DNA of 64,000 nucleotides from the NCBI GenBank assembly GCA_963575745.1, contig CAUYUJ010000248.1:434001-498000 (forward strand). The letters are read 5' to 3'. The stretch is from Prorocentrum cordatum (Eukaryota). The position numbers and the translations under genes are program-made. Below, piece after piece: positions 16,273 to 47,771 of the stretch. The notes beneath the pieces were generated by a model, which saw only the letters and a program-made list of their open reading frames with translations, was not told the origin of the DNA and did no database searches. Positions within the stretch are counted from its first letter, which is position 1; the number at the start of each line of letters is the position of its first letter.

Positions 16273-16294
16273 TCCGTAGCCCCTCTGGCTCAAG
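16273..16294 (+). other. Dinoflagellate spliced-leader relic
   Basis: TCCGTAGCCCCTCTGGCTCAAG matches DCCGTAGCCATTTTGGCTCAAG at 19/22 and begins at the first base after the TSD. Confidence 0.88.
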
Positions 16295-16705
16295 CCGTCT
16301 GGTGGGCCTGCCCTCTCCGGGGCAGTCTCCCGCCGCTCAAGGGGGCGCCCAGACGCTGCGCCGGGGGCCCGCGGCCCTGGACCCCCTCCAGCCCCGGGCG
16401 CGCCAGCCATCGCGAACGCCTTCCCGCCGCGCAGACGGGCTCAGCGGCCCGAGGCTCAGATCGGATCAGGACCGCTGCCTCATGTTTGGTCGGCCTGATA
16501 TAGCTTACGATCGATCGGCGACAATCCTGTCATCCCTGCGGGGGAAAGAGCCGCATCATCCGATGTCGGCCTCGGGACCACTGGGCCAAATGACTTTGGA
16601 CAGACTCGCCCTGGATCTCAGGACACCATCCCGCTGGGGCAACCGTCGCTCTCTGTTCCCTGGAATGGGAGCGTTTCGGCCGATGCTTCGGGCACGCGAG
16701 GACAA

Positions 16706-19700
16706 ATGGTCCCCAGCCAATCGGAGGGAGGGGCTGATCCCCTCAACACTGTGATACACACCGAACGTGCGACCTTCCGTCGCTACCCTGGACTTGAGAT
16801 CGACGGACGCGCAGCGGTAGACGGGGTTGATACGTTCAGCCCTCCGCTTCATACTGACAGCGCGACCTTCCGTCGCCATCCTGAAGGTAATAATGTCAGA
16901 CATGAGGCCCTCCCGCCCAGCTACCCTTCCCTTACCCCCACTCTTCCTCTGCCCACGGCTGGACGCCCAATCTCCTTTTCTCCAGGCAGCGCTGGGCACA
17001 GCGGGACCGCCCATGGCGATGCTAGGCTCACGGGGGCCGACGGGCCCACTCCTGAAGCAGTTTATTATCCCACGAACCCCCCTCCTCTCGGACAGTCTCG
17101 CGACGAGCCGGGAGTTGCCCTCGGCTCCCGACGCAGGGACCTCGATGGCGTGGATGGGGACTGTATGGACCCGACACCCCCAGCAAGCGCCCATGAAGGC
17201 GAAGTGGGGGGAGACGGGCAGTCACGTCGCCTCGGCCCCGTCGCGCATCCTAGGGGCTCTTGCCCTCACTCCGCCGTGCCCCCCTCTCTGGACGCGGCCG
17301 CCCCGAGTGAGGCTGCTCCCCACAACGGTTCGAGCATGGAAGACATGTCCTCAGGTTGCTGCGCGCACATCGATGCTGACACCACTCCAGGCCGCCTTCA
17401 GGAGCCTGACAGCGGCAGGCGTAGCATTGAAGGAGGGGGTAGTGCGGCCATCCCCACAATTCACACAGAACGCGCGGCCTTCCGTCGCTACCCTGGAACG
17501 GACTGCGACGGGCAGAGGAACGCCCGCGATGTTCAGCCCAGGGAACGGTGTGTAGGGGAAGAATGCACCAGGGAGCTGACCCCTGCGGGGGATGGTCGTG
17601 GCAACGTTGGCAGAGGACAACCCGACGCTGCGACCTTCCGTCGCTCCCATGGGCGCGATGACCTTGGGCACGAAGCCCTCCTGTCTAACCCAACCGCCTC
17701 TCTCACCCCCGCCGCTCCCATGCCCGCTGCAGGACGTCCAACTTCCCTCGCTCCAGGCGCTGTCGGTGAAACGACCCCAGGCGTCACCAGGGCTACGGGG
17801 GGAGAGGGCCCCGCTTCGGCACAAAACTCCCCCGCGGATCCAGTCTCGCTTAGGACAACCGACGAGGAACAGACAAACATCCGCCGCGGTCTTCCCAGGG
17901 GACAGGTTGACTCGGATGTTGCGCTCAGGGAGCTGATATCCTCAGGGGACGCTCACGAGGGCATAGGCAACAGGAGCGGGCAAGCCGCTGCCCGCAGCCC
18001 CTGCACGCCCCATCAAGGCTCACGCCAACCCACCGCCGACCCCCCCCCCTGGGCGTGCCCGCGCTGGGTGAGGCCGTCCCCGCTGGCGAGCTAAGCGGTG
18101 GAGCCACGCCTTCCACCTGTGAAGGGCATCCCGCCACCGACGCAGCATCCGACCGCTCCCGTGCACCCGAGAGCGGCAGGCATAATGTTGGAGAAGGGGG
18201 GGATGCAGACATTCCTGATATACACCCAAACCGTGCGACCTTCCGTCGCTACCCTGGAGCGGATGGCGGAAGGCTGGACGAGGCCCAAGGCGTTCGACCC
18301 AGGGAACAGTCGGACGGGGGAGCTAGGACCAGGGACCCTACCCCCACGGGGGTTGGACGGGGGTGCGGTGGTTATGTGCACCCCAGCGCTGCCGCCTCCA
18401 GTCGACCCACTGGAGACGAGAGCGCTAGGCACCACACTTAAGGAGTGGACGAGGCTCTCCCCCCCGCGATACACACAGAACGTGCGACCTTCCGTCGCTA
18501 CCCTGGACCGGACGACGGCGCGCAGAGAGAGGCGCACGGCGTTCAACCCAGGGATCGTTGGCAGAGGGAAGACATGACCTGTGACCCAGCCCCCACAGAG
18601 GCGGGACGGGACAGCGTCGTCAGTATACACGCTGATACCGCGGCCTCCCGGTGCCTCCCAGGAGCAGGCCACGGGCCGTGCCTCGCGCTTGAGGGAGGGG
18701 TGCGAGAGTCGGGGGTCCCCGGCTCCAGTGATCGCAGGGAGGCGCCCTCCTCCACAGGGATGATCGATCGCCTTTGTCTCGCCATGGGTTTGGCCGTTGG
18801 AAGGCCTGACGGGCCTCCTCGTTCGCCCAGCACCCCCAGGGTTGCTCCCGATCCCGCGGTCGGGGCCGCTCCTCATGTCGATCCGATCGATCGGGCAAGG
18901 TCTCCGATCCCGGCGGGTGGATCTCCTCGTGCCTTTCCTCCCTCGTCCACCAGCTCTTCCCCCGACTTCTCCCCTCCCGACCTGCCCCCTGGGCTCGAGT
19001 TTCTTAACACTGCGCTCGGTGGATGCCGTCGTGGACCTGACTCCTCGTCACAGGGCAGAGAGCGGGGGCCTCTCCTTTGGACGGACAGCGGCGCGCCCCT
19101 CGAGGTCAGCCACACGGCACACAGGGGCCCCGTCCTCACGGACCCCCCCTCCTACCCATCTCCAGATCTCGCCCTGGAAGATGATCTGCGAATGGAGAAC
19201 CCGCCCACCCCCTCAGACCTTGACGACCCCAGCCAAGCGCTGAGGAGCAGGGGGCAAAGCGCTGCGGACCTCCACGCACGGTGGCTGGACGCCACTGGGC
19301 ACACGAATGCTGACTGGGCGGCCAGCCGGGAGGCGGACGGACCCATCTGTGGCCCGCGCGTTGCAGACGCCAGGATCTCTGGCAGGGGGGGCACCATGAG
19401 GGCCCTACGCCGGCACCTTGTGCACACTGAGGGGCCATGGCGCGAGGTCCCCAACCGCGGAGCGCCGAGAACATCTCGTGAGACCAGCAACCTGGAGCTC
19501 CTCATACACCACGCGTGGAGGAGGCACCGCCCAGGCCACCCAGGCATACGAGCTGACAGCCCCATGCGCACGGCTCCTGTAGAACCAGCCCTCCCTGGAC
19601 GTTACTCCGAGGTCGCCACTTCAGCCCCAATTCTCGCTATCCTGGACCACACCTGGCTGGTATGGTCCATCACTGGAGGAGACTATGAAGGGCGTCTGGG

Positions 19701-21168
19701 AGGCGTTCAACCGGACCCAGTCCAGGTCCTCGCCTTCCGCTTTGCGAGCATTACTCATGATCTCAGTATAAGGAGTGAAAGAATGGACGCAGCCAACCCC
19801 TCTGTGACTGAGAGGCAACTAGCACGGCTCGAGTACGTTGCCATGGCCGCAGCTGCACACTACTGCGACATAGGAATGGAGCTCCCGAACGGATATGACA
19901 CATATAGGATGCTCATGCCCACCAGATCCCCTGAGGACTCTGCCCCCCTGCACATCGGTGGCCCCAACCGAGCAGACGGGACGCAGGACCCCATGGATGA
20001 CGAGGTCATGGGTTGCGCCCATCGAGTCCTGATTCACGAGCGCAGGCAAAACATAGTCCACTTTCCGGACCACGGGGACGTCAGGCAGTGGGCCATCACG
20101 AGAGGGAACCTCGAGCGTATGGGAAGTGACGTGCACTCGAGACGACAAGCAGGTAGAGGCCCAGTCCCATGGGTAGAGGCCGCCCTCTCGGGGATACCCG
20201 CCAGCTCCGCGGGCATCCCTGGAGTCCCCATCCAAGGAAGCGACAGTAGCGACGACGCTTGGCCATGGTCCACCACAGCTCACGGACTGCGGCTGCGGGA
20301 TTTTTTCTGCCCAGGAGAGAGATGTAATTTCTGTGGCACCTGGATGCTCCGAGACCCCACAGGACAAACCTGTATCACTTGCCACAGACTGGCCAGCCCC
20401 TGGAGTTACAACCCAGAGGAGCCGCGAGCAGACGCCTCACCTCAGAGTCACCCAGGAGCAGACCTCGGCAAGCCACCCAACAGGCACACCCTCGACCTCC
20501 TGGGCGGGACTCTGCTGATGCAGCTCGTCAAAGCGGGCATGCGATACGCCCCAATCGCCGAGCACTTGTGCTCCCCCACACCGCCTGGCCCCTCCGACTT
20601 CACCCCAACGTGGCTTGTGGGTGAACTCCTGGGAGCCTGGAGGCATATGGTGGCCCACGCTGCAGGCCTACCTGAAATCTGGTCATACGAAAACTCAGGA
20701 GGCCTCGAAGAGGTCGGGAGCGATTGGAAACTCCGCACAGCGTCGATCTCGCTGGCTTTACTTTGCTCAGCGCCAGGCTCCTGGGCCTTAAACGTCTGCC
20801 AGGAAATTCGGCACATCATCAGGACCCACCCCCATGGTCGGCTCGATGGGTGGTTCCCTCCCTCTCTCTACCACGGCGGCACAGACACTCACCCACAAAC
20901 ATACCAGAGGCCCCCACTACCCAGCAGAACAACTACATCCGTTCCCATTGGACCGAACACTCGGGTGCACCTGGACGACCTCTGCTGGCTAAGATACACC
21001 ATCGGCGGGGACCACCTTGACCGCGCTATAAGCGACGCACGTGATCACACCGATCTCAGCAGACGCTGGTGGCACAATAGAGACAGCCCCCACTCTCAAA
21101 CAGCAGAAGTACTGAGAAGGGCGCTGCAAGCAGCCGCACGCACTGACTGGCGCCCAATACATCCCTAA
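16706..21168 (+). pseudogene. N-terminal region of the element polyprotein, unknown function (ORFs 16706-18094, 18055-18441, 18445-21168)
   Basis: The HTERATFRRYPG repeat is shared by all three ORFs, which are joined by a frameshift at a C10 run (18040-18049) and an in-frame TAA (18439). A CNFC...CITC motif lies near 20324-20387. Confidence 0.6.
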
Positions 21169-21346
21169 ATGGGGCAGGGTACCCCCATGGGAAACCTCGT
21201 CACGGACGCCGTCATCAGACGACTGGAGGCAGACAGCAGGGGGCAGGACCAAGAGCGTTTTGGGCATCCTAGCGAAGGGCGCGCCCCCATGGACGTGGAC
21301 AACCCTTGCAACGGCAGGGACAGCCACGCGGGCTTAGAAGGGGTAG

Positions 21347-24300
21347 TTGCCAGGCCTCCCCAAAGACCCCCCCCCAGTCCTGGAGGAGGGGCTTTCTCAA
21401 GCAGAGCGGTCGCAGCGGGACGCATTCATCGAGGAGGTGAGGAGAATCAGGGCGAGGGCCGCAAGCAACTCCGTCACCCCTGGCATGCGTTGGAGCAGTA
21501 TCTTGGTCCCCTTCATATGGGGCACAGCCACTAACAGAGGTCGAAACGTCCTCGAACTAGCCTTCAGGAGCAGCAACCTCAGCACCGCTATTATCGAACA
21601 TGCAGCAGCCTGGTGGAGAGCACGAGGAGTCAGCTCCTACAGGGATGCCCAGTTAGCACTCGCATCCGAAGCAGATATGGCGTCCAGGGCAGCTGGTGCC
21701 TCGCTCGAGGCCCCCGAGGTAGGCGGCTACATCGCACCCCAGCTCCAGGAGCGAATGATGCTGCACCTGGATGCAAGCGGCTTCCTTCAGACTGCCATCC
21801 TGTCTGGGGATCGGCAGGCGGTGGAGGCTGGAGCGAGGGTTCGGGCTCAAATGGCCAGTACCGGACCGAGGTCAAACCCAAGGAACAGCGGGCCCGCGAG
21901 CGAAGGCAGACCACGCCCTGGAGTAGAAACCGAAACTGTGGAAGCCGCAAGCACAACCACGCCATCGCACGCGGATATAAGACAGATGCTCAACCGGGCA
22001 AGCTTCGCTACTCCCCAGGGCAGGTTACCGGCTGGCAGTACCAGAGAAGGGCTCCTGGACGGACTCATACGCACTCTCGACGCCAGGCAGCGGGATGAAG
22101 AGGAGGCAGGCAGAGGTACCATGCCGGCCCCCGGAGAAAGGACCTCTGTCAATGGAGACCAGGCACAGTGCCTCGCACAAAGCATGCTCCTGGAACACAG
22201 GGTAGATCGACAACCGGGTCCCTGGATCTCTAGAGCCCTGTGGCTCTGCCTGGCCCCACACTACTTCCCCCTCCTCAAGCCAGTGCTGACTGCGCGGGCC
22301 CTGGACTCCCGACCCTACGACGTTCTCTACCGCTGGATGACCAGGAATGAGGTGCACACGCAGGAAGACCTCGTGGCCTGCCTTCGGAGGGACTTCCCGG
22401 ATGCCGATCTAGCTCCATACTCCGACCTCAGCAACTCACAAATCCAGGCCCTTATATCCCATCTCAGTGAAGGAGCTAGTCTGACGCACCTCGACGCCAG
22501 TGTGTCCGCCAGAGCCCTCATCGAGAGCCTGGGGGATGGCTTATCCCAACTTAGCCACCCTCCTGGGGACAGTGTCAGGCCCCCTCCGGAAAGCATGGAC
22601 GCCGTGGAAGTTCCTCCTTGGGACCGGGAGGTAGGAACCCCTCGATGCATGATCTGCTGCGAGGACATCTTAGGTTTCGCGGAAGCCCTGGTACCATGCG
22701 GCCACCTGTATCACGCCGAATGCCTGAAACAGTGGAGGATTAGCCAATCAGCGCAAGCCCTGTCCTACGGAAGATGCTTCCCAGTTAACTGTCCCATATG
22801 CCGCTCCGTCGATAGGGGCAGCGTCGCCGTAAGGATTCCAGACCGACCACGAGATGCCGACGCCGCGGACATTGCGGTACCACCAGACCTCCTACAGCTC
22901 CGCGACGGGACCCTTCTCCCACTGCAGCCCTTCCTGAGCCTGCAAGAGTTAGCCGATGCCTTCAGGCACCTGGCCCCAGATCTGGACTGCCTCAGAGCAC
23001 AAACACTCTCCATCCGACGTCCCCACACATACGTCACACTTTCAGACATGCGCAGAATCCACGCGCACGTTACCGAGAGGAGAACCGCGCAGGAGGCACG
23101 TCATGCCCCGATGGAAGTGGATGGGACCCCACCTGACGGCGGGAACGGTGGAAGCGGCATGGACTCCGACGACACCCACAACAGCACGCAGGGACCTGGG
23201 ACCTCGCCTCCGCAGCGACCCCCTGGTCCCACCAACAGGGCAGATAGGAGACGGCAAGCCCCGCGAATCACTTTCGGAAGATGGGCACTGCTACTGGGAC
23301 GGAACCCCCCAGAGGATGAACCCATGAGGAGGGGACCTGGGCGGTTCCCGGTAGGGCTGCTCACCGCGGCCGTCCGAGACATTGCAGCCGATCTGGTAAT
23401 TTCCAGAAGCACCTACCTCGGCGAACGTGTAGCGGATGAGACTGGAGTCACCTTTGCCCTCGCAGGCCCAGACGCCTGGGAGCAGATCAAAGCAGTAGTC
23501 TCGGAGCGCAGGAACCAGCCTCACGGGAGCGCCGCCCCAACAATCCTTGTGGTAGATGCCCTAGCTCAACACATGGATGCCGCCCTGACGGCAGCTGCCG
23601 CCGCGGGCAGCCCATGCTGTCTCGTCGCCCTGGCCACCGAGGGAGTGCCGTCACCTGGAGGACCGGATCCGGTCGAGCTCGCAGCCCTGGCAAACGCGCA
23701 GTGGGGATACCGAGCCGCCAGCAAAATTACCCATCTCGTGCCGATTGGACACCCCAACCGAACAGGCAAGCCCAGCCCACCAATGCAGCAACTCTTCGCC
23801 GCTCAGTTCGACCTAGAGGGCAGGACACTGCGCACGATCCTACCCCCGTCAATAGTTGTGCACTGGGGTGGAAGGAATGGGGACACCTCTGATGCGCTGC
23901 ACATCCTAACCCCTGAGAGCGGCAATGACGGCGTCGTTGCGCAGATCATGAGGTGGAGGGATGAACTAGGGCGATCCCACAACGGGATGATCGCAGCCGA
24001 CTGGGTCACCACGAGAGTGCAACTCCCCCGGGACGAGCTCCTGAGATGCCAGGGACTCGAGATGTTCTTCCACCACGTTCTCCGCTGCAGAGCAGCGAGA
24101 CCCACGAGCTGTGAGGACGGCATACGTGCCCCCCTGGATAATCTGCAGGCGGCAGCTCAAACCACCATGCTGGCCTACCAGACGGCATGCGCCCGGAGAA
24201 CACACGAGACAAGTGACTCTGTACACATCCCAGTTCCCCCCAGAGCGATCTGCATAGCCCACTCTGTAGCCTCCACAACAGCTGGAGCTATGGGACACAG

Positions 24301-26410: not shown

Positions 26411-26416
26411 CGGCAG

Positions 26417-33197: not shown

Positions 33198-35092
33198 GGC
33201 GGGGAGAAGGTGGAGCAAACTCGTGAAATTGGCGCGGGACTTCGCCCCTCGGGATGAGCCACGTAGGCCCGGCTCCAAGGTGCTGACCGACGCCAGGGCC
33301 GCTGACCTTTTCAATCGCGCCATGAGAGAGCCCCCTAGGCGCCGGGCTCGCTACTTCGGGCGCGTAGTTTACGTCGCGGCCTGGACGCAGCTCCACGGGC
33401 ACGTGGTGAGCTCCTGGTTCTCCACAAGCAGCCACGAACGTAGGTGGGCCCAAACAGACGGTGCGGAATGGTCCCTTCTCGGGCACTGCGCCTGCTTCAC
33501 CGAGGCGCACCACGTCCTCCGCGTTCTGGCCAACGGACTACCCGGATCCGCGCGTAGACGAAGCGTCGCTGACAGGATCCCCCACCAGTGCGGCTGCGGC
33601 AGGATGGCCAATAGAGTCTGGCTCACCGCTGGACAACGAGATCGCGGTCAGGCCTGGTGCGACTCGCGCCTCGGACCCTGGACCGGAGAGGCCTCCCTCT
33701 GGCCCCTCCTTGGCGACGACGCTTTGCCCGAGGACTTGCGTCCACTTGCTGCGGAGAGAAGAGGACAACTCGGAGACATCACCGTTCCAATACGGCAAGG
33801 ACTCTACGGAGCCTGCCCTCTCTGCGGCCTGGGAGAAGCCACTACTGAGCACGCGTGGGGCTGGTGCCCCGCCGCCGCCCTCGCCTGGGAAAAGACCAAA
33901 GGCCCTGACCACCCCAGAGACCTTCCCACCGCGATATGCCCCAGGCGGCAGCACCAGAGACTGGTCTGCCGCCTTCTACACCAGATCTCCTTTAGATACT
34001 GTGTGAACCTGGACTGTGCCCCCATCGGAGCCGACGAAGCCGCCAGAATCATTGTCCAGGGAATCTCCGTACCAGACACCGACCTCCAGGAAGACAATGA
34101 GGAGGAAGACGACATACAAGAAGGGCAGGCCCCTGCTGCACCGGCGGACGAAACTGCAGTCTGGGCCCCCATGCTGCTCCCCTGTCAACTTTGCAATCCC
34201 CAAGGCCCGCACCTGCTGCGCATTCAGGGGGCCGCTGGTCCGCATCTCGGCGGACAAGCTCCACGCGCTGGAGGGGAAATCCGGCACCTCCCTGTCACGA
34301 CCAGGATCGTGCGGAGTGGGGATCGGCTCGCCGTTCTCCAATCGGGCGACACCAGAGCGAGTTGGATGCCGCCTGGGTTGGGCTGGTTCCCCTGCCCCAG
34401 GACAGACAGGTCCCCCAGTGCCCTCTGGACCAAGAGCTACCGCCGACTCTGCGACCTGCATACCCTGGTGCTCAGAGCCAGCAGGGACATGGAAGCTGGC
34501 GAGGAGATCACCGTCAGAGACTCTCCGCCCCCCGCTGCCGATGCGGCCCAATGGCCCTTTGAGCTCACCTTCGACGGGGGGGCTCGCCGAATTGGGGGAG
34601 ACGACAAGGTCTCCGGGGCGGCAGCTGTCCTCTGGAAACACGACCCGCACCGCGGCTACCCTCGCGTCGTCGCGGTTGCCGTTGTTGCCCTCCCGGGCTG
34701 CGACAATGCACAGACGGCGAAGGCATCCGGGTGCAGAGCGGGACTCGCCCTGCTCCCCCACCTTGACACCACCCTCCGAGGTGCCCGGGGTGGTCGGCGA
34801 CAATCTTGCCGCCATCCGGTACGGAGCTGGCACGGGCCGCTATCGCCGGCTCTACCTGGCACAGCAGATGGACTTCGCCCTTCGGCAAGCAAGCGAAGCC
34901 GGATGGACACTTACATGGCAGGCCGTGCGTCGTCGCCTCAACAAAGCAGCTGACCGTCTTGCCACACTAGGTGTCTTCTGGGCCGATGCCCTTCGACGCG
35001 CCGGCGATCTAGCCGTCACTTCCTGGGTCGTCTGGGAGGGCTCCCAGCTGCCCCCCCCCCCTGTTTCCTGCCGCGGACATCGACCTCTGTGA
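33031..35092 (+). pseudogene. RT C-terminal region: CCHC zinc knuckle, SET-like segment, RNase HI (frameshifted)
   Basis: CPLCGLGEATTEHAWGWCP; LRASRDMEAGEEITV; FDGGAR...SGAAAVLW...NAQTAKA; then in the 34016 frame VVGDN...WQAVRRRLNKAADRLA. Confidence 0.8.
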
Positions 35093-35261
35093 CTTGGACC
35101 AAGTTGCGCTGTTTGTTGATGCCCTCGAAAATCCCCCCCCTCCCCCCCCTCTGATCGCCCCCCGCCGCGACACACTAAGGTCCTGACGGGTCGCAGCGTC
35201 ACTGCCATCACAAGAAGCGCAGCCATCCGCTGCCACCCTGGACCGGTTCCCACCCTAGACA

Positions 35262-38200: not shown

Positions 38201-40025
38201 GCGCGCCCTGCTACCGGAGCTCCACAAGGGCACCACTGTCAGAATCGTGGTCGGCTACCAGCTCCAGACGGCCATTCTCATGGACGGATGGCCGCAGGGT
38301 CCTCGTCACCTCTCCGGCGTTCTGCGTAACACCAGAGGTGGCGCCAAAGGGCAGCCCGGCAAGGGGAAAGACGGTCCTGGACGCGGTGGTCAGGATATTC
38401 CCGGCCCTGGACAACCCCCCCAAGGCCACTGGGTGGACACTCACCGCTGGCAACAGGTGTTCCGGGAAGACGACAATGCTAACACTGCCATCAGCTCTAA
38501 CTTCCCTGGACTACGTCAGGTGGCGGGCGAGCACATGAGCACTGGGGCTCTCAAACTCACGACAATCGACTCCAGCCAGGGAGGCGAGGCGGACATCGTA
38601 ATAGTGTTAACTGCTCGGAGCAACGGCAGCTACAACTGGGGTTTCGTCGACGACGCCAAGCGCCTGAACGTGGCAATCACCAGGGCCAAGCGGAATATCC
38701 TGACCTTGGGAGACGGTCGCATGTTCGCCAACGCCACATGGTCGCAGCTTCGCGTGCTCTCAGAGCATGGGAGATTGACTCGCCTCTGGGTCCAGTTTCG
38801 TGGCAGCGCCCCCGTGGGCCGCAGGCTCTCCCTGGACATTGACGACAGCTTCGACCCACTCCAGGACCTTGCCGCATGGATTCCCTCGCCCCCTGCCTGG
38901 GGCAGCGTCGCAAAGGGGGAGAACGGACAGAACGACCTGGACCTCGCCAAGAAGAAAGCGCGCGATGCCCAGGCCACCTGCTTCGCCGAGCGGTTCAATG
39001 CACCCCTGGAAGAGAGCTTCGACTGGGACACCCTGGGCAAGCTAATCTCGGGAGGGCTCCGCGATATCCTCTCGACGCCGGCCTTCCACGTGCTCATCTA
39101 CCTTATGTCTGGGCTGCATCCTCACGAGTTCACGTTGGCCAACACACCGCGGGAGCCGGGCATGCTCGACCGCAAGGCTTGGTCGCACCTGGGGTTCTTG
39201 TTTGACATGTCTCTCGGGCTCGACGCGACCAATCTAGTCTACAACACGCTGTGGGCAGCAATGGTTTGGTCGCTCGGCCTAGGCACCCCCTGGAGGGATG
39301 CGAGCTACGCCATTCCCGACGACTCCCTTCCCCCGCTGCCTCACGCCAGCGGCAGGCGTGCAACACTGTGGAAGCGCCGCCAGTGTACCCCCAAAGGGCT
39401 TTTCCGTCAGGTCCCCAAGGTTTGGAGCTCCGCTACCAAGGACTGCTGCAGACACCGGAAGCACCCTGGAATGACCGGGTTGGGAGACATCATCCGGGGG
39501 TGCGGCTCCTCGATGGAAGAGTTCCGTCAGGGACTCTTAGACACCGACGGCCAGCCCATGGATTCCTGCAAGGCCCGCTCGCTTCTGGCGGTCATGATGC
39601 TTATGCTCCGTGAGCCGCGAGTGTTTCTATGGCCTTTCTCTCATGCAGAGCAGGCCGGGGACGTCATCGAAGCGATTCTGGTTTTCTGCGTACCCTGGCA
39701 AGAGGTCCACCAGGATTCCCGAAGCCGGTTCGCCAGTACCTGGAGCCTCACCCTGGAAGACTTGGCCGACCTGCACAGTCGCATCGAGGCAGTGCTACCA
39801 CACATCTCCAAGCTCGTGGCTTTGGCCCATCACCACCCGGCTGCGCAGGAAGCCGGCTGCCCGCAAACCTGGAGCGAGATGGACAGGCAGGACTTCCAGC
39901 TGCAAGCGCCGATGATCGTTCTCGAACGGATCGTCCCGGCAGCAACTCTGACCTGCCTGGACACGGGCGACTGCTCGAGGGTGGATCGTTCAAGCGAAAA
40001 GACGCTCGTTCGAGCGAAAAGGTAA
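35262..40025 (+). CDS. UPF1/DNA2/NAM7-like superfamily-1 helicase, interrupted at 39977 by a nested insertion
   Basis: GPPGTGKT (37221), SNTAVD, VIDEAGQ (37644), LVGDPNQLPP, SIFDRM, YRMHP, TIDSSQGGEAD, RLNVAITRAK (38661). Confidence 0.93.
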   Translation: MPKNNQGPLRRWPSCLPHSDEGPPMRAGTRVFLARFCPWMRWVYFHGGWRHWREICQEPVDDTEHILSAKHYDMSAARYQDGRPDPNTFTTPGNLWCMCGGNPYDATHQVSVTRLAWRGWKPAQPLVTRDGVRSLPGIAIPEDALHVPITYPLWDDPSTYNCPGGTRVEPEKVRSHMMDRRGAAKEGLRQPEDGDGNRMRAKSSIWLPPSPGQAAGSSGVPPPPRPPSHPPPAWSPPCQQRTVQLAEGSETEIEALSPTSPAALEDSLATQAASDVANLYSVPLDSPHSRVHPKAALGELINAVRLPSQWPYSLQDRGQTLRRIAWVESQASVETVDDGRGSTREDLARRGNCALGVRVTRIDANTRMEDLDTFRLRNAMHLPDGKEFLLLEWPSMCKVATRPLERDKESRWLYISVTGPTVDKIADVSVWWPPALGGHIHPRDAQALGLSPSDRYPSNLRIVVYNYGKGGQFHEDETKARRPPSDDLPWHRVDEAPSDIQFWRQCSALDQIYYLRQNPADLFGHQLSPLTYLLAFVHAPRSDRTLANDLGHMRSLGLSLRARAEATLERNVPDADHLQAVEDGTLLQAPPLPQGLKAFSDDEISDTTGSVFQRVRPTPSLDTLHRIIDKHRPNGDATSALRATLNHHAVLLHGPPGTGKTTFSVACLDMWGSCLRPGHAVALAAGSNTAVDQPALAMIEAQRQRRLDQDTGFPDKFVRLARKDRVNEALVDLTPEGHYRNAHGEFPFQDGDKNQGFKPYKASLLRQARIIMSTHEASEALGQKDSPQIVLLVIDEAGQATELHALMSMVNLINSGGTVVLVGDPNQLPPTVLSKLANELGLCVSIFDRMFHALRGQESSVVHLSICYRMHPQLLAFPNAAYYGKGMKSGILDPLRERPIVEGIPWRDIRVWEPERLAKLATLTGSDESDLRATLEPLDPPLSPDKHRFLMVHTPSWEVTSELQPGFANLPEAAQAVDIVRALLPELHKGTTVRIVVGYQLQTAILMDGWPQGPRHLSGVLRNTRGGAKGQPGKGKDGPGRGGQDIPGPGQPPQGHWVDTHRWQQVFREDDNANTAISSNFPGLRQVAGEHMSTGALKLTTIDSSQGGEADIVIVLTARSNGSYNWGFVDDAKRLNVAITRAKRNILTLGDGRMFANATWSQLRVLSEHGRLTRLWVQFRGSAPVGRRLSLDIDDSFDPLQDLAAWIPSPPAWGSVAKGENGQNDLDLAKKKARDAQATCFAERFNAPLEESFDWDTLGKLISGGLRDILSTPAFHVLIYLMSGLHPHEFTLANTPREPGMLDRKAWSHLGFLFDMSLGLDATNLVYNTLWAAMVWSLGLGTPWRDASYAIPDDSLPPLPHASGRRATLWKRRQCTPKGLFRQVPKVWSSATKDCCRHRKHPGMTGLGDIIRGCGSSMEEFRQGLLDTDGQPMDSCKARSLLAVMMLMLREPRVFLWPFSHAEQAGDVIEAILVFCVPWQEVHQDSRSRFASTWSLTLEDLADLHSRIEAVLPHISKLVALAHHHPAAQEAGCPQTWSEMDRQDFQLQAPMIVLERIVPAATLTCLDTGDCSRVDRSSEKTLVRAKR

Positions 40026-40063
40026 TCCGTTCAAGCGAAAACCAACCGAGCGAAAACCAATCC

Positions 40064-40866
40064 AGAGCAGCAGAGAGCAGCAGAGAGCAGCAGAGAGCAG
40101 CAGCAGAACAGCAGAGAGCAGCAGCAGAACAGCAGAGAGCAGCAGCAGAACAGCAGAGAGCAGCAGCAGAACAGCAGAGAGCAGCAGCAGAGCAGCAGCA
40201 GCAGAACAGCAGAGAGCAGCAGCAGAACAGCAGAGAGCAGCAGCAGAACAGCAGAGAGCAGCAGCAGAACAGCAGAGAGCAGCAGCAGAACAGCAGAGAG
40301 CAGCAGCAGAACAGCAGAGAGCAGCAGCAGAACAGCAGAGAGCAGCAGCAGAACAGCAGAGAGCAGCAGCAGAACAGCAGAGAGCAGCAGCAGAACAGCA
40401 GAGAGCAGCAGCAGAACAGCAGAGAGCAGCAGCAGAACAGCAGAGAGCAGCAGCAGAGCAGCAGCAGAGACAGCAGAGAGCAGCAGCAGAACAGCAGAGA
40501 GCAGCAGCAGAACAGCAGAGAGCAGCAGCAGAACAGCAGAGAGCAGCAGCAGAACAGCAGAGAGCAGCAGCAGAACAGCAGAGAGCAGCAGCAGAGCAGC
40601 AGCAGAACAGCAGCAGAGCAGCAGCAGAACAGCAGAGAGCAGCAGCAGAGCAGCAGCAGAACAGCAGCAGAACAGCAGCAGAACAGCAGAGAGCAGCAGC
40701 AGAGCAGCAGAGAGCAGCAGCAGAAGCAGCAGAACAGCAGAGAGCAGCAGAGAGCAGAGAGAGAGCAGTAGAGAGCAGCAGAAGAACAGCAGAGAGCAGC
40801 AGAGCAGCAGCAGAACAGCAGAGAGCAGCAGCAGAACAGCAGAGAGCAGCAGCAGAGCAGCAGAGA
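40064..40866. repeat. 21-bp minisatellite (AGCAGCAGCAGAACAGCAGAG)
   Basis: Seen directly; the + strand is almost T-free. Confidence 0.95.
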
Positions 40867-40876
40867 ATCAGATAGC

Positions 40877-43800
40877 AAAATCATGGTTCCCGCCATCCTC
40901 GGGGCCGCCGTGGGTCCCACGGGCGCCAGCCAGAGCCCGGAACCACGATTTCGGGCTTTTCCGGCCTGGATCTCTCCAAAATCATGGTTCCCGCCATCCT
41001 CGGGGCCGCCGTGGGCCCCAGGGGCGCCAGCCAGAGCTGGGAACCACGATTTCGGGCTTTTCCGGCCGGATCTCTCCAAAATCATGATTCCCGCCATCCT
41101 CGGGGCCGCCGTGGGCCCCAGGGGCGCCAGCCAGAGCTGGGAACCATGATTTCGGGTTTTTCCGGCCTGGATCTCCCCAAAATCATGGTTCCCGCCATCC
41201 TCGGGGCCGCCGTGGGTCCCACGGGCGCCAGCTAGAGCCGGGAACCACGATTTCGGGTTTTTCCGGCTTGGATCTCTCCAAAATCATGGTTCCCGCCGTC
41301 CTCGGCGCCGCCGTGGGTCCCAGGGGCGCCAGCCAGAGCTGGGAACCACGATTTCAGGCTTTTCCGGCCTGGATCTCTCCAAAATCATGGTCCCCGCCAT
41401 CCTCGGAGCCGCCGTGGGTCCCACGGGCGCCAGCCAGAGCTGGGAACCGCGATTTCGGGCTTTTCCGGCCTGGATCTCTCCAAAATCATAGTTCCCGCCA
41501 TCCTCGGGGCCGCCGTGGGTCCCAGGGGCGCCAGCCAGAGCTGGGAACCACGATTTCGAGCTTTTCCGGCCTGGATCTCTCCAAAATCATGGTTCCCGCC
41601 ATCCTCGGGGCCGCCGTGGGCCCAGGGGCGCCAGCCAGAGCTGGGAACCACGATTTCGGGCTTTTCCGGCCTGGATCTCTCCAAAATCATGGTTCCCGCC
41701 ATCCTCGGGGCCGCCGTGGGCCCCAGGGGCGCCAGCCAGAGCTGGGAACCACGATTTCGGGCTTTTCCGGCCTGGATCTCTCCAAAATCATGGTTCCCGC
41801 CGTCCTCGGCGCCGCCGTGGGTCCCAGGGCGCCAGCCAGAGCCGGGAACCACGATTTCGGGTTTTCCGGCCTGGATCTCTCCAAAATCATGGTTCCCGCC
41901 ATCCTCTGGGCCGCCGTGGGCCCCAGGGGCGCCAGCCAGAGCTGGGAACCACGATTTCGGGCTTTTCCGGCCTGGATCTCTCCAAAATCATAGTTCCCGC
42001 CATCCTCGGGGCCGCCGCGGGCCCCAGGGGCGCCAGCCAGAGCTGGGAACCACGATTTCGGGCTTTTCCGGCCTGGATCTCTCCAAAATCATGGTTCCCG
42101 CCATCCTCGGGACCGCTGTGGGTCCCAGGGGCGCCAGCCAGAGCTGGGAACCAAGATTTCGGGCTTTTCCGGCCTGGATCTCTCCAAAATCACGGTTCCC
42201 GCCATCCTCGGGGCCGCCGTGGGTCCCACGGGCGCCAGCCAGAGCTGGGAATCATGATTTCGGGCTTTTCCGGCTTGGATCTCTCCAAAATCATGGTTCC
42301 CGCCATCCTCGGGGCCGCCGTGGGTCCCAGGGGCGCCAGCCAGAGCTGGGAACCACGATTTCGGGCTTTTCCGGCTTGGATCTCTCCAAAATCATGGTTC
42401 CCGCCATCCTCGGGGCCGCCGTGGGTCCCACGGGCGCCAGCCAGAGCCGGGAACCACGATTTCGGGGTTTTCTGGCCTGGATCTCTCCAAAATGATTCCC
42501 GCCATTCTCGGGGCCGCCGTGGGTCCCAGGGGCGCCAGCCAGAGCAAATCATGGTTCCCGCCATCCTCGGGGCCGCCGTGGGTCCTAGGGGCGCCAGTCA
42601 GAGCCGGGAGCCATGATTTCGGGCTTTTCCGATTTCGGGCTTTTCCGGCCTGGATCTCTCCAAAATCATGGTTCCCGCCATCCTCGGGGCCGCCGTGGGT
42701 CCCACAGGCGCCAGCCAGAGCCGGGAACCATGATTTCGGGCTTTTCCGGCCTGGATCTCTCCAAAATCATGGTTCCCGCCATCCTCGAGGCCGCCGTGGG
42801 TCCCAGGGGCGCCAGCCAGAGCTGGGAACCACGATTTCGGGGTTTTCTGGCCTGGATCTTTCCAACATCATGGTTCCCGCCATCCTCGGAGCCGCCGTGG
42901 GCCCCACGGGCGCCAGCCAGAGCCGGGAACCATGATTTCGGGTTTTTCCGGCCTGGATCTCTCCAAAATCATGGTTCCCGCCATCTTCGGGGCCGCCGTG
43001 GGCCCCAGGGGCGCCAGCCAGAGCTGGGAACCATGATTTCGGGCTTTTCCGGCCTGGATCTCTCCAAAATCATAGTTCCCGCCATCCTCGGGGCCGCCGT
43101 GGGTCCCAGGGCGCCAGCCAGAGCTGGGAACCACGATTTCGGGCTTTTCCGGCCTGGATCTCTCCAAAATCATGGTTCCCGCCATCCTCGGGGCCGCCGT
43201 GGGCCCCAGGGGCGCCAGCCAGAGCTGGGATGATTTCGGGCTTCTCCGGCCTGGATCTCTCCAAAATCATGGTTCCCGCCATCCTCGGGGCCGCCGTGGG
43301 CCCCAGGGGCGCCAGCCAGAGCTGGGAACCACGATTTCGGGTTTTTCCGGCCTGGATCTCTCCAAAATCATGGTTCCCGCCATCCTCGGGGCCGCCGTGG
43401 GCCCCAGGGGCGCCAGCCAGAGCTGGGAACCATGATTTCGGGCTTTTCCGGCCTGGATCTCTCCAAAATCATGATTCCCGCCATCCTCGGGGCCGCCGTG
43501 GGCCCCAGGGGCGCCAGCCAGAGCTGGGAACCATGATTTCGGGCTTTTCCGGCCTGGATCTCTCCAAAATCATGGTTCCCGCCATCCTCGGGGCCGCCGT
43601 GGGCCCCACGGGCGCCAGCCAGAGCTGGGAACCACGATTTCGGGCTTTTCCGGCCTGGATCTCTCCAAAATCATGGTTCCCGCCATCCTCGGGGCCGCCG
43701 TGGGCCCCAGGGGCGCCAGCCAGAGCTGGGAACCATGATTTCGGGCTTTTCCGGCCTGGATCTCTCCAAAATCATGGTTCCCGCCATCCTCGGGGCCGCC

Positions 43801-43910
43801 GTGAGTTCCTGGGGCGCCAGACAGAGCCGGGAACCGGAATTTCGGGGGTTTTCCAGCCTCGACCTCTCCAAAATCGTGGTTCCCGCCATCTTCTGGGCTG
43901 CCGTGGGTTC
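40877..43910. repeat. ~101-bp tandem satellite, about 30 copies
   Basis: AAAATCATGGTTCCCGCCATCCTCGGGGCCGCCGTGGG... recurs at 40877, 40978, 41078 and onward. Confidence 0.96.
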
Positions 43911-44004
43911 TTTTCGCGCGCGCGCGCCCAGCGGATTTTTTTCGAACGGCCCGCAGTTTTCGCGCGAATCGATTTCGCGCGGACGGCGGACCCTCCGACT
44001 GCTC

Positions 44005-46188
44005 AGTGTGTGCACTACACGTCGCACTGGCTGGTTCCGACGCCTCCCTCGGTCCCGACGACAGGGTTGCGGGCCTTTCCTACATCGGCGGCGGACTTGC
44101 CTTGTCCCAGTCGACCTCAATGCCCCTCCACCACTGGCTCCGGCCCCGGGCACCAGACTGGACCCTCTGTTCATCCCCGACGAAAGGCTCGCGCTCGAAA
44201 AGAAGAACAACAGATACACGTGCGACAGTTGCGGGAAGGACCACCTGACTGCCGCTGAATGTACCTGGATATCCGACAGCACGCGCCAGATGGTCGCTCA
44301 GAGTAGACCTCAGGCGTACATCAACGGCGCCAACGTGGGCTGGTACTGCGCTGGCTGCTGGATACGTAACCTCGAGGACAATGGCTTCCCTACGCCTGCC
44401 GGAACGAAGCTCACCGACAGAATCAGGGAACATGAGCAGCAGATATCGGGCGCCGGCAACGACAGAGCGAGCGCCCTCCCTTCCCTGGGACTCCTTCCGC
44501 TCGGCTACGGCTGCAGCCCCCTGGCGGACACGAGGCAGTTAGATGACCTCCTCATTGAACCGACGGGCATGAAGATCCCCGAGTGTGCCAATACCACCAT
44601 TCCGATCCTCCGGATCCGGGACGACCGCTTCGGCATCAAAGCCGCTCAGACGCGGACCTACTCCGCGCGGTGCGACACCTGCCCCCAGGGGGCCCCGCTC
44701 CTGGTCTGGGACCCCCGCTCTCCGCCGCTGGGGTGCTTCATATGGAAGCCGGCTGAAGACATAGGAGCTCCCGAGCAACATGGGCTGCCCCCCATCGATA
44801 AGCGTGCCCTGGCCTGGTCGGGGCGCCAATGGAACGCTACTTGGTGCTGCCGGCGCTGTCTGGTCCCGATCTGGAACATAGGCCCGGCCACCCTGGGCCA
44901 CATCCTGGATCGCGACTTCAGGCCGCTGTATCCAGATGAACCTCCGGCCCTTCCCCCGCTCAGCAGCCAGATTGGGTTCAAGGCACCTGTGGACATCGTG
45001 GATTCCCTCCCGTGGCTTGGCGAGGACGCCAAGGCCCAGGACCAATTCACCAAGGTCGGAGCAAGCAATCCCCCTGGACCCAGCCCCACAGGCAGCTCTG
45101 GCGCGGCGCCAGAGATCACCTCCCTGGCAGGGTCCCCGCCATCTGGCGCGTGTTCTGGTGGCGACGACAGGCCAGATACTCCCATGGCGGCCGACACAGA
45201 CAGGTCTCAGGGTTCAGCGGACAACGACTCACGCATGGGCCACCATGACCCGCCCGACGACGACAACGGTGAAGGCGCGGAAGACGGGCTCCCCCTTCAC
45301 AAGATGGAGCCCGACTACGAAGAGGATGAACCCGCCCGTCCTCCCACGCCTTCCGAGTCGGCCCAGGAGGGCGATGATAATCGCTCAGGCGGCGATGCCC
45401 CACAGCGAAGCCCGTCGGCGGGCAGCTCTGACACCAGCCGCGAGGATACCGCGACTTCAGTCGCAGAAGATACGCCCTACGCCGATCGCAGGAGGGCTCC
45501 AGCCCGAGACCCCGCGAGGCACGAGAGGACCAGCGACGGTGGCGGCTCGCGGTACGAGCGCTTTCCCGCGCCCACCCCGACGCCCCCTGAGCGGAGGCCC
45601 CATTACTCTCGCCATACTGGCTCTTCGGAGCAGGACGCACTCAACATGCTGTCCTGCCCTGATGGAGGCGGCCCAATGTACAAAGTCAGGCTGGGCACCG
45701 TCGAACTCGAACGTCCCGACGAGACACCAGCCAGTCGCATATCCAGGCTTCAGTCGCAGCTGGGAGCAGTCTTTTGCGCACTGTGGACAGCGAACACGCA
45801 GCGTACCTTGCTCCCTGGATGGGGGGCGCCCAAGTCCGACCCGAAACTACACATGCCCTCGGATATCATCAACTTCCTAGAGGCCTGGAAGGACTGCGGG
45901 CACGACGCCTACGAGATGAACAGGAGGCTGGGCTATGAGATCGACTGGAACAAGATACGAGCCAACTACCTGCGTCACTCCCAGACAGACGACAGGAGCA
46001 AAGGCGGCTATCGCCACACGGGCTGGCGCGACCGTGCGACAAGTTTCTGGGACACCTGGAGCAGTTGGCAGGGCGAGTGGCGCGACGGATGGCGCGAGGA
46101 CCACTGGCAGACGGGTGGCAAGCGCGGCGGAGGTTACCCTGATGATTGGGATGATCGAGAGGAAAAGAGACTCCGCTGGAGAGACTGA
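44005..46188 (+). CDS. 3'-most element ORF: paired CxxC motifs, acidic linker, W/R/D-rich C-terminus; unknown function
   Basis: Non-satellite part of ORF 43735-46188: CDSC...CAGC and CDTC...CRRC. The start codon in the track lies in the satellite and is artefactual. Confidence 0.65.
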   Translation, partial: SVCTTRRTGWFRRLPRSRRQGCGPFLHRRRTCLVPVDLNAPPPLAPAPGTRLDPLFIPDERLALEKKNNRYTCDSCGKDHLTAAECTWISDSTRQMVAQSRPQAYINGANVGWYCAGCWIRNLEDNGFPTPAGTKLTDRIREHEQQISGAGNDRASALPSLGLLPLGYGCSPLADTRQLDDLLIEPTGMKIPECANTTIPILRIRDDRFGIKAAQTRTYSARCDTCPQGAPLLVWDPRSPPLGCFIWKPAEDIGAPEQHGLPPIDKRALAWSGRQWNATWCCRRCLVPIWNIGPATLGHILDRDFRPLYPDEPPALPPLSSQIGFKAPVDIVDSLPWLGEDAKAQDQFTKVGASNPPGPSPTGSSGAAPEITSLAGSPPSGACSGGDDRPDTPMAADTDRSQGSADNDSRMGHHDPPDDDNGEGAEDGLPLHKMEPDYEEDEPARPPTPSESAQEGDDNRSGGDAPQRSPSAGSSDTSREDTATSVAEDTPYADRRRAPARDPARHERTSDGGGSRYERFPAPTPTPPERRPHYSRHTGSSEQDALNMLSCPDGGGPMYKVRLGTVELERPDETPASRISRLQSQLGAVFCALWTANTQRTLLPGWGAPKSDPKLHMPSDIINFLEAWKDCGHDAYEMNRRLGYEIDWNKIRANYLRHSQTDDRSKGGYRHTGWRDRATSFWDTWSSWQGEWRDGWREDHWQTGGKRGGGYPDDWDDREEKRLRWRD

Positions 46189-47728
46189 ACTCCCTCTCTG
46201 CCCTCGCCGCCCCCCAGTGCCCGCGCCACCACCTGCGCTTCACAACGCGCCACCGCGGCCCTCTGCCGCCCTTTCCCTCAACCTGGGGCAGCTCTGCCTC
46301 CCCCCCCTGAACGGCACCCTCTCTCACCCTTGGCCTCGGGGTGCCGTTCGGTAATACCGTCTGCTCCCTGCGTGACACCGCGCATCCTGCAGACCAACTT
46401 GCCACTGGCATCACTGCCTTTCCCCACCGGTGGCCGACGCCCTCTTGTCACACGCTTCCTCTTTCCCCGCCTTGCTTCACTTCCTGAATTCCAGCGGACG
46501 CTGCCCAGGCCGCGCTGCGGGCCCCTAATCGCGGCGCTCTGCCGCCCTCCACCCGATGCGCGCACCTCCTGCCTTTGGATCCAGGTGCGCGCTTCGGCAA
46601 TACCGTCCACCGCCTCTCCGCAGTGGACTCGCGGCCTCAGGCCCTACTGTAGTTGTCTCACCGCCAGGCCTTCCTGGCTTGTCAGTGGGCCACGGTTCGC
46701 CTGTCCACTGGCTTTCCCCCTGGACTTTCTAACCGAACGAACGGCCTTCCGCGTCACCCTGGACCTTTCAAACAAGCAGCACGGCCTTCCGCCGTCACCC
46801 TGGATCCAATGGCTCTGAGGGACACGTCTCGGGTACAAGGCGTCCTCGTCCCTCTGTGCTAGACGACTCGGTTGGGTATCGCTGGGCCACCTTAGATGTG
46901 CATACTCCTCGGGGTCTGCCGTGCATCGTGCTCTTCTACGCCCTTCCACTCGTCGGATCTGGGCTGTCGCATCTCAGTTGTGGAAGATATTCTTGTCATC
47001 TTGCTCCACACCCTGGATGCGCTTTCTAGCGTTGCGACTGGCTCGCCGTCTGCTTTTTTCCATTGGTCCGTGTTCCCAGTCAGCCTGTGGTACCCTTCAG
47101 GCTCCATGGATCGGTGCCCTCTGGTGCTCCCTTGCTGGACGGCTTCCTACCGCGACCCTGGATCAGTGGCTTTGTGGGACTTGCCTGGGTATACACGGTC
47201 TCGTTCCGCGTGTGCCCTCCGTCTCGTTCTGGACTGCACTGTGACACTGTGGTGTGCACACGCCGCGTTTCGACGGGTAGCGTGCATCAGGTGCCCTTCC
47301 ACCCGGGGGTCTGGGCCGAAACATCTCGGTGTGGTAGTCTTCTCGGAACATGTTCACACCTTGATGCCGTTCTGGCGCCGCGGCTCGCTGCCGCCGTCGG
47401 GATCCTCGCTGGACTTACCTCCCCGTCGTCTGTGCTACCCGACAGGCTGGGGTTGACGTCCTCGGGTCGTTCCCTTGTCCGCACCTGGACGTTGGAACGT
47501 TATCGCGCCATTTTGGCTGCGCTAGGTCGTCTCGGTGCCTACCTCAGGCCCGTTGGACGCACCTGCATGCCCGTTCAGGGGCTGTCATGGCACCTGGATT
47601 GCATCGGCCTCGCCCCCCTGGACGCTGTCGTGAGCCGCCTGATCCGCGGCCCTGCGCGCGTTAGGTAATTTAGTCGCGTCCGCGGCCCGTTCGCGACCTT
47701 CCGCCGCTGGCGCTTCCGCCTGCGGCTG

Positions 47729-47737
47729 TATATATAT

Positions 47738-47771
<34 letters not shown>
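47729..47771 (+). repeat. (TA)n 3' tail of the giant retrotransposon
   Basis: Directly precedes the right TSD. Confidence 0.9.

Follow-up and report, generated by a model that had tools for sequence, protein, structure and literature searches.

A candidate giant LINE-type retrotransposon with RING-H2 and Upf1/Sen1-like helicase genes in the dinoflagellate Prorocentrum cordatum

A 64-kb stretch of the genome of the dinoflagellate Prorocentrum cordatum (contig CAUYUJ010000248.1, positions 434,001 to 498,000; hereafter the window, within which all coordinates are given) contains, at 16273-47771, a 31,499-bp unit with the ends and the core of a long interspersed nuclear element (LINE). The present study suggests that this unit is probably a full-length copy of a giant family of apurinic/apyrimidinic endonuclease (APE)-type LINEs that resembles SymbioLINE-Dnmt, has four open reading frames (ORFs) and moved as one unit. 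Ordinary LINEs are compact, ~3-8 kb in length, and have one or two ORFs. To the LINE core, which is formed by ORF2, the element adds a 5′ ORF0, an N-terminal extension of ORF1 that spans ~2,000 codons and bears a RING-H2 finger, and a large ORF3. The first-pass annotation of this DNA had described a LINE far larger than ordinary ones with RING and superfamily 1 (SF1) helicase genes, a description borne out by a unit that is bounded by a target-site duplication (TSD), headed by a spliced leader (SL), tailed, and built around an APE–reverse transcriptase (RT) core. A bolder form of this reading, to which we give slightly less than an even chance, is that the family is active and consists of site-specific, SL-headed LINEs that measure ~27-31 kb and have four large ORFs (~8,000-9,000 codons), in which the Upf1/Sen1-like helicase, the RING E3 ligase, and a possibly noncatalytic DNA methyltransferase (DNMT)-like module are working parts of the ribonucleoprotein (RNP). 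Such an element would be the largest retrotransposon lacking long terminal repeats (non-LTR retrotransposon) described.

Results

The Element Has the Ends of a Retrotransposed Unit

The element is flanked by an exact 13-mer, GTATCCCTACCAG, at 16260-16272 and 47772-47784, and no other exact copy of this 13-mer is present in the window. When up to two mismatches are allowed, the window contains five matches to it vs. 0.78 expected, a number reached in 0 of 100 shuffles. At the first base past the 5′ TSD copy begins TCCGTAGCCCCTCTGGCTCAAG (16273-16294, + strand), a relic of the dinoflagellate spliced leader (DinoSL), which is given as DCCGUAGCCAUUUUGGCUCAAG (PMC6050394). The relic matches DinoSL at 19 of 22 positions, and its three mismatches all lie within the AUUUU core. 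With identical TSDs around the unit, a relic diverged at 3/22 positions was probably already part of the source copy and not newly added. It opens a 5′ untranslated region (UTR; 16273-16481) that ends before an ATG at 16482, the start codon that is used if a 2-nt TA slip at 16498 is absent. At the other end, a 3′ UTR (46189-47728), which contains GCGCCATTTTGGCTGCGCT at 47505-47523, is followed directly before the 3′ TSD copy by a (TA)n tail (47729-47771) that makes up the last 43 bases of the element and that Tandem Repeats Finder (TRF) delimits as 47729-47775, with 23.5 copies and 91% matches. A search of the element ends for terminal direct or inverted repeats, as in LTR elements or elements with terminal inverted repeats (TIRs), found none. 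All long ORFs of the element lie on the + strand, as the first-pass annotation had noted, and composition is even across the modules (GC 0.62-0.65; observed/expected CpG 0.65-0.92). An Rfam scan of the whole window gave no matches. Elsewhere in the window, at 60855-60877, a second DinoSL relic, TCCGTAGCCATTTTTGGCTCAAG, with one extra T, stands after a long CT-rich tract and resembles the head of an SL-tagged retrogene.

The element lies in a satellite-rich window with a GC content of 0.51-0.70 per 2-kb bin. The host repeat unit, ~1.8 kb long, is composed of a GAGGAGG-rich part, a CTCTTGG-rich part, and an array of the 11-mer GCCATGCAGTT. The first-pass annotation had held that both ends are defined by a 13-bp TSD, a 5′ SL relic and a 3′ (TA)n tail, and that the interrupted host repeat resumes exactly past that tail; both points stand. 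The 943 bp from 47772 onward align with 81% identity to the preceding satellite unit at 14713-15628. Its estimate of ~27.5 kb does not fit the interval of 31,499 bp; a length of 27,654 bp is obtained only after subtraction of the internal arrays at 40063-43907 (3.85 kb) described below. At the far 5′ side of the window, positions 600-6617 are occupied by a 6-kb (GAC)n-type trinucleotide array of ~2,000 copies with 72% matches.

A Second Insertion Occupies the Same Host Site

The sequence upstream of 16260 matches the sequence upstream of 14447, where the neighboring satellite unit carries a second retro-insertion (14447-14725, + strand). This insert, 253 bp long (14460-14712), ends in A6, has neither a 5′ SL relic nor an ORF, and is flanked by the TSD GTATCCCCACCAG at 14447-14459 and 14713-14725. 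Excising either insert together with one repeat copy restores the same unbroken host sequence; each is thus an insertion, and their 13-bp TSDs share the same phase. The target site in the host satellite is GTATCCCYACCAG. Because the only two copies of this site in the window both carry insertions (2/2), the data point to a preferred target with a bottom-strand nick at CGC|GTAT, and they suggest site-specific integration, a proposal that draws on a pair of insertions within one window. The only similarity between the inserts is the 19-nt motif GCGCCATTTTGGCT(A/G)CGCT (E = 0.009).

This motif lies at 47505-47523 and 14510-14528, ~190-215 nt from the 3′ end of each insert. Its core, GCCATTTTGGCT, is identical to positions 7-18 of DinoSL, a stretch that contains the Sm-site-like AUUUUGG.

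ORF2 Is the LINE Core

ORF2 (29545-35089, + strand) identifies the element's core as an APE-type non-LTR retrotransposon, with a YxDD RT, an N-terminal APE domain, no LTR or TIR, a TSD, and a 3′ tail. Of 7,999 candidates scored in a search with the ORF at 29874-33194, seven are relatives at E ≤ 1e-3. All seven come from metagenome assemblies, on contigs of up to 33 kb, and are 36-62% identical to the window sequence; six are 1,735-1,815 aa long and 38-62% identical. In tblastn the seven align collinearly over 29725-35062 but in three frames, which locates 1-nt frameshifts in this copy near 30040, 33177-33181, and 34787-34789.

Domain assignments were made by a Pfam scan of 15 ORF translations of the window and through these relatives. 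The endonuclease (30042-30760, + strand) is matched by Exo_endo_phos_2 at E = 1.1e-3. A profile of six ORF2 relatives retrieves from the PDB the L1 endonuclease (2v0s, 6.9e-8; 8uw3, 2.6e-6; 1vyb) and the TRAS1 endonuclease (4.2e-4), and the endonuclease motifs QETHW, GGD.N, and SDH are conserved. In the RT core (32016-32402, + strand), which carries YVDD at 32337-32348, the window sequence matches RVT_1 at E = 8.3e-5 with 22.8 bits, under the gathering cutoff of 29.6, and the family profile matches the R2 RT (9nl2) at 5.3e-8. Farther downstream on the same strand lies a zinc knuckle of the form C-x2-C-x8-H-x4-C, CPLCGLGEATTEHAWGWC (33814-33867), whose ligands C1369, C1372, H1381, and C1386 are invariant in six of six aligned homologs; the CPLCG...H...C pattern is also present in the window. 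The RNase H domain (34558-35062, + strand) is recognized through homologs, three of seven of which (P0004, P0005, and P0006) match RVT_3; RVT_1 is found in six of the seven, and an EEP-type endonuclease in five. The invariant Glu of this domain (E1671 of P0001, conserved in six of six homologs) is a Lys here, at 34720-34722.

Among the window ORF translations, Pfam recognized no DNA_methylase, SET, RNase H, or zf-CCHC. The SET-like domain proposed in the first-pass annotation is not supported. SET folds are marked by NHSC and ELxFDY-type motifs. Neither the window ORFs nor the seven ORF2 homologs contain a Pfam SET match; the motifs NH[SGAT]C, [RK]F[IVL]NH, and E[LIV]x[FYW]DY are absent from the window and six homologs; and an Atlas search with residues 1440-1615 of P0001 gave no usable match. 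The sole SET-like trace is LRASRDMEAGEEITV (34471-34515), which resembles the C-terminal SET motif. The rest of the domain list in that annotation held: RING-H2, APE, RT, CCHC, RNase H (through homologs), SF1 helicase, and the Cys-rich region were recovered, and the DNMT assignment persisted in a weak form, the catalytic Cys being replaced.

The 5′ ORFs Bear a RING-H2 Finger and a DNMT-Like Region

The ORF0 region (16482-21165, + strand) is split in this copy into 16499-18091, 17911-18438, and 18442-21165. It holds four to five repeats of the motif IHTERATFRRYPG and has no Pfam match or recognizable domain. ORF1 (21347-28729, + strand) spans 2,461 codons and is broken here by a TGA at 26408-26410. 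Its RING-H2 finger (22643-22804, + strand; ORF residues 433-486) has the C3H2C3 ligand pattern C-x2-C...C-x-H-x2-H-x2-C...C-x2-C and matches zf-RING_2 at E = 1.3e-6, with 29.0 bits vs. a cutoff of 27.3; a ligase role is predicted from this pattern. A word-indexed protein search with the RING-bearing ORF gave one match.

The DNMT-like region (28202-28870, + strand) covers the end of ORF1 and the frame beyond it, so that the TAG at 28730 lies inside. By eye, we take the last ~180 residues of ORF1 and the frame past this stop to resemble motifs I-VI of C5-methyltransferases. In the ESM Atlas, 30 of 30 among the matches listed for this stretch belong to PF00145 clusters, with scores of 0.91-0.93. 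The stretch is also homologous (BLASTP E = 1e-9) to an ORF that lies directly upstream of ORF2 in the metagenome contig L003. That ORF carries GSPC, the PC motif, whereas PG replaces PC in the window copy; the alignment places the window GLPGAS opposite GSPCDQ and the TAG at 28730 opposite a His, so that the catalytic Cys is replaced here. At what we presume to be the position of the ENV motif, the window has CEC and L003 has QEM. A DNMT-like domain, degenerate in this copy, is thus plausible from the residues compared. Between ORF1 and ORF2 lies an (AG)23 microsatellite (29269-29314), at which read contigs appear to be cut.

ORF3 Joins a Upf1/Sen1-Like Helicase to a Cys-Rich Domain

ORF3 begins ~170 nt past the ORF2 stop. 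Its N-terminal part (35259-40022, + strand; Met at 35262) has a Cys/His-rich N terminus followed by a Upf1/Sen1-like SF1B helicase core (37176-38714, + strand), recognized by Pfam as AAA_11 (6.3e-27) and AAA_12 (5.9e-27). The closest structures are those of Sen1 (5mzn, 5.1e-30), Upf1 (2xzo, 4e-27), and IGHMBP2 (2.3e-20). The C-terminal part (43994-46185, + strand) contains a Cys-rich domain (44149-44934) and a conserved C-terminal end (45712-45954). When residues 1-1200 of ORF3 were compared with all libraries by HMMER, 14,458 proteins scored E ≤ 1e-3 and 22 of these E ≤ 1e-30; a word-indexed search with the helicase ORF gave nine matches, only distant Sen1/HELZ2-type proteins; and a metagenome scan with ORF3 gave 43 pattern matches, none of which was confirmed. 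The AlphaFold2 (AF2) model of the ORF3 N terminus, built on seven alignment rows, has a predicted local distance difference test (pLDDT) score of 49.8.

The two parts are separated by tandem arrays at 40063-43907, a 21-mer array at 40063-40866 and a 101-mer array at 40876-42545 and 42631-43907. The best ORF3 relative, P0046 (2,945 aa, 31% identity), shares the same N terminus (from 35292), continues via the helicase to 39986, and then passes directly into 43994-44934 (aa 1528-1848) and 45712-45954 (aa 2812-2894); a further protein, P0197, begins at the same ORF3 start. In the distant relative P0046, the helicase and Cys-rich ORFs therefore form a single gene, and the arrays, which P0046 lacks, are an expansion inside ORF3.

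Each 101-nt unit (40876-43907) contains an imperfect palindrome (GGGAACCATGATTT...AAATCATGGTTCCC), and ~29 tandem RNA or DNA hairpins could therefore form.

Array growth inside ORF3 bears on the possibility that the 31.5 kb was never one RNA and instead represents a nested pile-up, in which later same-strand insertions and array growth enlarged an older insertion. The 3.85 kb of 21-mer and 101-mer arrays has clearly expanded in place, and nested transposable elements are common in repeat-rich genomes. Yet the element contains a single SL relic, the other SL-like site of the window (60855) lying outside it; poly(A) and (TA)n tails are lacking from its interior, in which the only duplications of 40 nt or more are the arrays and the ORF0 repeats; the borders of the modules fall on ORF starts and stops conserved in relatives; and composition is uniform. 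We therefore hold a pile-up to be very improbable.

The Modules Recur Together in Diverged Relatives

The adjacency of ORF2 and ORF3 recurs elsewhere in P. cordatum. In the gene model CAK0863567.1 (P0054), aa 310-398 correspond to 33304-33570 of ORF2 and aa 400-561 to 35280-35771 of the ORF3 N terminus, followed by helicase pieces. Its ORF2 piece is 50-57% identical and the copy as a whole 37-57% identical to the window; thus, the adjacency recurs in a strongly diverged copy. Because the ORF2–ORF3 linkage is found at 37-57% identity in P0054, and the helicase–Cys-rich fusion at ~30% in P0046, both linkages are old. Upstream of ORF2, a metagenome scan with the ORF2 profile yielded 10 loci, all at most 6.1 kb long, of which L003 and L007 alone are informative; in both, the segment corresponding to 28643-29943 is kept collinear upstream of ORF2, as judged from the collinear alignments among those listed, the many low-complexity matches being disregarded. 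In L003 (471-3278) the DNMT-like ORF and ORF2 stand in one frame with a single stop codon between them, an arrangement that could reflect read-through or two ORFs. A further P. cordatum gene model, P0017, joins 21746-21862 (92%) to 44185-44676 (aa 559-722, 65%), which is weak evidence since its two parts differ in identity. Searches of viral contigs and of prokaryote genome contigs found no relatives of the element.

The first-pass annotation had also held that helicase or RING parts occurring elsewhere, unlinked to this RT and with their own boundaries, would speak against the unit. What was found is the linkage in P0054 and P0046 and a 5′ 20 kb that is multi-copy throughout, as described next.

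The 5′ 20 kb Is Multi-Copy, and Other Copies Carry an Intact ORF2

Logan short-read contigs from four runs (X1, X2, X3, and X5) belonging to four studies were compared, at 90% likeness or more, with 16100-36099. The pieces listed are at most 0.8 kb long and show local sequence, not long-range order. X1, X3, and X5 each cover all 30 bins of this interval, and X2 covers 27 of the 30. X1 alone contributes 3,930 contigs, of which 707 are at least 99% alike, 1,373 are 95-99% alike, and 1,850 are 90-95% alike, and each listed variant is carried in X1 by 1-15 contigs (4-8 at most of the listed 5′-ORF places beyond 16600). Repetitiveness is therefore the same for the 5′ ORFs as for ORF2.

The same contigs indicate what an undamaged copy looks like. 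A 2-nt deletion at 16498, present in all contigs covering it (one in X1 and one in X2), opens ORF0 at the ATG at 16482, and contigs of X1, X3, and X5 cover ORF0. At 26408 the base is C instead of T (TGA to CGA) in six of six covering contigs (five in X1 and one in X2), which makes ORF1 continuous over its 2,461 codons; the reverse change, CGA to TGA, looks like a real CpG transition and copy-specific damage. In ORF2, an additional A at 30039 is present in other copies (74 of 141 in X1 depth), a 1-nt deletion at 33181 accounts for the whole depth in X1, X2, and X5, while X3 has depth there without it, and a 1-nt deletion at 34787 is present in every covering contig of all four runs. These indels coincide exactly with the ORF2 frameshifts of the window and, when applied in silico, yield a single ORF2 of 1,848 codons.

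Several of the 1-2-nt differences between window and read contigs lie in homopolymers (C9 at 28876, CCCC at 33181, CCCGGGG at 34787, and C6 at 35157), and the frame breaks of the window may therefore in part be assembly errors. Such breaks (C9 28876, C6 35157, CCCGGGG 34787) are typical consensus errors and mark the assembly as imperfect, and a record spanning the element is not among the contigs placed; both facts would suit an assembly artefact, in which a long-read assembler chained repeats of different families into a false 31.5-kb unit. A chimera, however, is not expected to have exact TSD pairs at both ends with the host repeat continuous across the unit, contigs of four runs cover the 5′ 20 kb with few listed joints of low depth, and local junctions are reproduced in the independent data of P0054, P0046, and L003. 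An artefact of this kind is in our judgment scarcely credible.

The multiplicity of the 5′ 20 kb likewise bears on the idea that a long, SL-trans-spliced host read-through transcript that included a LINE was retroposed just once. SL-tagged retrogenes are abundant in dinoflagellates (PMC6050394), and another SL relic heads sequence at 60855. Against such a one-off processed retrocopy, the whole 5′ 20 kb is found in many diverged variants in four runs, and the SL relic is 3/22 diverged next to perfect TSDs, as expected of an inherited part of a family. We see very little room for this explanation.

Discussion

One Family or a Composite?

A different origin for the large size of the element is capture. 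The autonomous part would then be the ~7-9 kb that comprises the DNMT-like ORF and ORF2, and ORF0, the RING-bearing part, and ORF3 would be passive cargo taken from the host or from other transposable elements by 5′ or 3′ read-through in a recent sublineage. Transduction of the L1 type, at the 3′ end, is established (PMC6431247); predicted proteins related to ORF3 exist separately and begin at a start of their own; immediately upstream of ORF2, contigs of X3 and X5 part from the window sequence and have loose ends at 29720; and the ORF2-bearing metagenome contigs L001 and L002 span only 4.9-6.1 kb and contain nothing of ORF3. The last point carries little weight, because L001 and L002 stop at contig edges and are uninformative on what lies downstream. 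Moreover, the linkages of ORF2 to ORF3 (P0054, 37-57%) and of the helicase to the Cys-rich domain (P0046, ~30%) are old, the ~170 nt between the ORF2 stop and ORF3 contain no tail, SL, or TSD, and all 5′ segments are multi-copy alongside ORF2. Composite formation by recent capture thus appears unlikely.

Several observations weigh against a full-length member of a giant LINE family that moved as one unit. The full-length form with its own TSD is known from a single copy. Its long-range contiguity comes from the assembly alone, the contigs placed being at most ~0.8 kb, and the read-contig comparison ended at 36.1 kb, 11.7 kb (36100-47771) short of the 3′ end. P0054 and P0017 are automatic gene models that may splice over unrelated fragments, and the closest full relatives of ORF3, P0046 and P0197, are predicted as stand-alone proteins that begin with an N terminus of their own. 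Neither the DNMT-like segment of the window nor the L003 ORF has a match in Pfam (E up to 10) or by phmmer in the PDB, and the AF2 model of the segment, from a two-row alignment, has a pLDDT of 52.3 and no Foldseek match in the PDB at E ≤ 1e-3; Foldseek of this model retrieves generic Rossmann-like folds only. Alignment of the 253-bp insert with the 3′ end of the element scores 46 vs. 39.5 ± 7.7 in shuffles, and the 3′ ends of the two inserts fold, as RNA, no better than shuffles (z of -0.61 and +1.34). Finally, this copy is damaged: it has the TGA at 26408, the TAG at 28730, the Glu-to-Lys change in RNase H, the arrays that split ORF3, and stops or frameshifts in ORF0, ORF1, and ORF2. Judged by its reading frames, it would be unable to yield complete ORF1 or ORF3 proteins. 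An exact look-up of eight window ORFs in the collection searched found none.

A Model for Mobilization of the Entire Unit

Collectively, a single giant LINE family with four ORFs remains our preferred reading, and the first-pass annotation had proposed the corresponding mechanism, that the whole unit was copied from one RNA through target-primed reverse transcription (TPRT). We likewise infer that an SL-headed RNA of the entire unit would be made and then copied in this way. The ORF2 endonuclease would nick the satellite site, which it may prefer, on the bottom strand at CGC|GTAT, with the top-strand nick 13 bp downstream, and cDNA synthesis would be primed on the (UA)n end of the RNA. The element's own 5′-3′ helicase may assist with the very long RNP or template RNA, and possible targets of the RING and DNMT-like modules are host factors or nucleic acid, for instance in countering host restriction. 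The helicase, RING, and DNMT-like proteins would, in this model, serve the element's RNP and would not be passively carried host genes.

RT processivity and 5′ truncation are taken to constrain how large LINEs can be. If our reading is correct, then a 27-31-kb LINE with four giant ORFs resets this size limit and offers a natural case of extremely processive TPRT, since TPRT of a template of >27 kb in vivo would be implied. Non-LTR elements, like giant LTR and Penelope-like ones, could then gather accessory toolkits such as an RNA helicase, an E3 ligase, and a methyltransferase-like domain. The gigantism of dinoflagellate genomes and their rampant retroposition lack an explanation; elements of this kind could be a major part of dinoflagellate genome bulk and could supply the machinery behind SL-tagged retrogenes. 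The presence of a Upf1-like helicase on a multi-ORF mRNA is also a lead on how an element might evade or use RNA surveillance.

Comparison with Known Mobile Elements

Site-specific LINEs, such as R1/R2, the Tx1 group, NeSL/SLACS, and Utopia, repeatedly use one sequence in a repetitive target. The element described here resembles them in that both copies of its site found in the window (2/2) carry an insert with a 13-bp TSD. Here, the comparison involves two insertions in one window, the family link of the second being unsupported by alignment, together with an APE-type endonuclease and a satellite target.

A full-text literature search found no description of a giant LINE, of a LINE with this domain set, or of a dinoflagellate LINE with a helicase or a RING domain. 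Giant retroelements that reach tens of kb and carry additional ORFs are represented by Terminons (Penelope-like) and by Burro and Ogre (Ty3/gypsy), and Burro includes ubiquitination-related domains (PMC6431247, a 2019 review). In the parts of that review consulted, no giant non-LTR (LINE) element is named, and L1 is mentioned only for short 3′ transduction. In contrast to Terminons, Burro, and Ogre, which are Penelope-like or LTR elements, the P. cordatum element is a non-LTR retrotransposon. An acquired SF1 helicase in a non-LTR retrotransposon has a parallel in insect R1 LINEs, in which a tobamovirus-like SF1 helicase is fused C-terminally to ORF2 (PMC4686597); the helicase of the P. cordatum element, however, is Upf1/Sen1-like and resides in a separate giant ORF3 with conserved N- and C-terminal Cys-rich domains.

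The most similar architecture is that of SymbioLINE-Dnmt, a dinoflagellate LINE with a DNMT in an ORF upstream of an ORF2 that contains Exo_endo_phos, RVT_1, and RNase H domains, and with TSDs, conserved UTRs, and no poly(A) (PMC5890265, de Mendoza et al. 2018). Both elements have an APE–RT–RNase H ORF2, a TSD, and no poly(A), and the P. cordatum element has a candidate DNMT-like domain in the ORF upstream of ORF2, so that the likeness is one of domain architecture. They differ in that the DNMT-like part of the P. cordatum element forms the C-terminal end of a 2,461-codon ORF with a RING-H2 finger, its catalytic PC being PG in this copy, and in that the element has an extra ORF0 and an ORF3 with a Upf1-like helicase, spans 27.7-31.5 kb, and resides in Prorocentrum and not in the Symbiodiniaceae.

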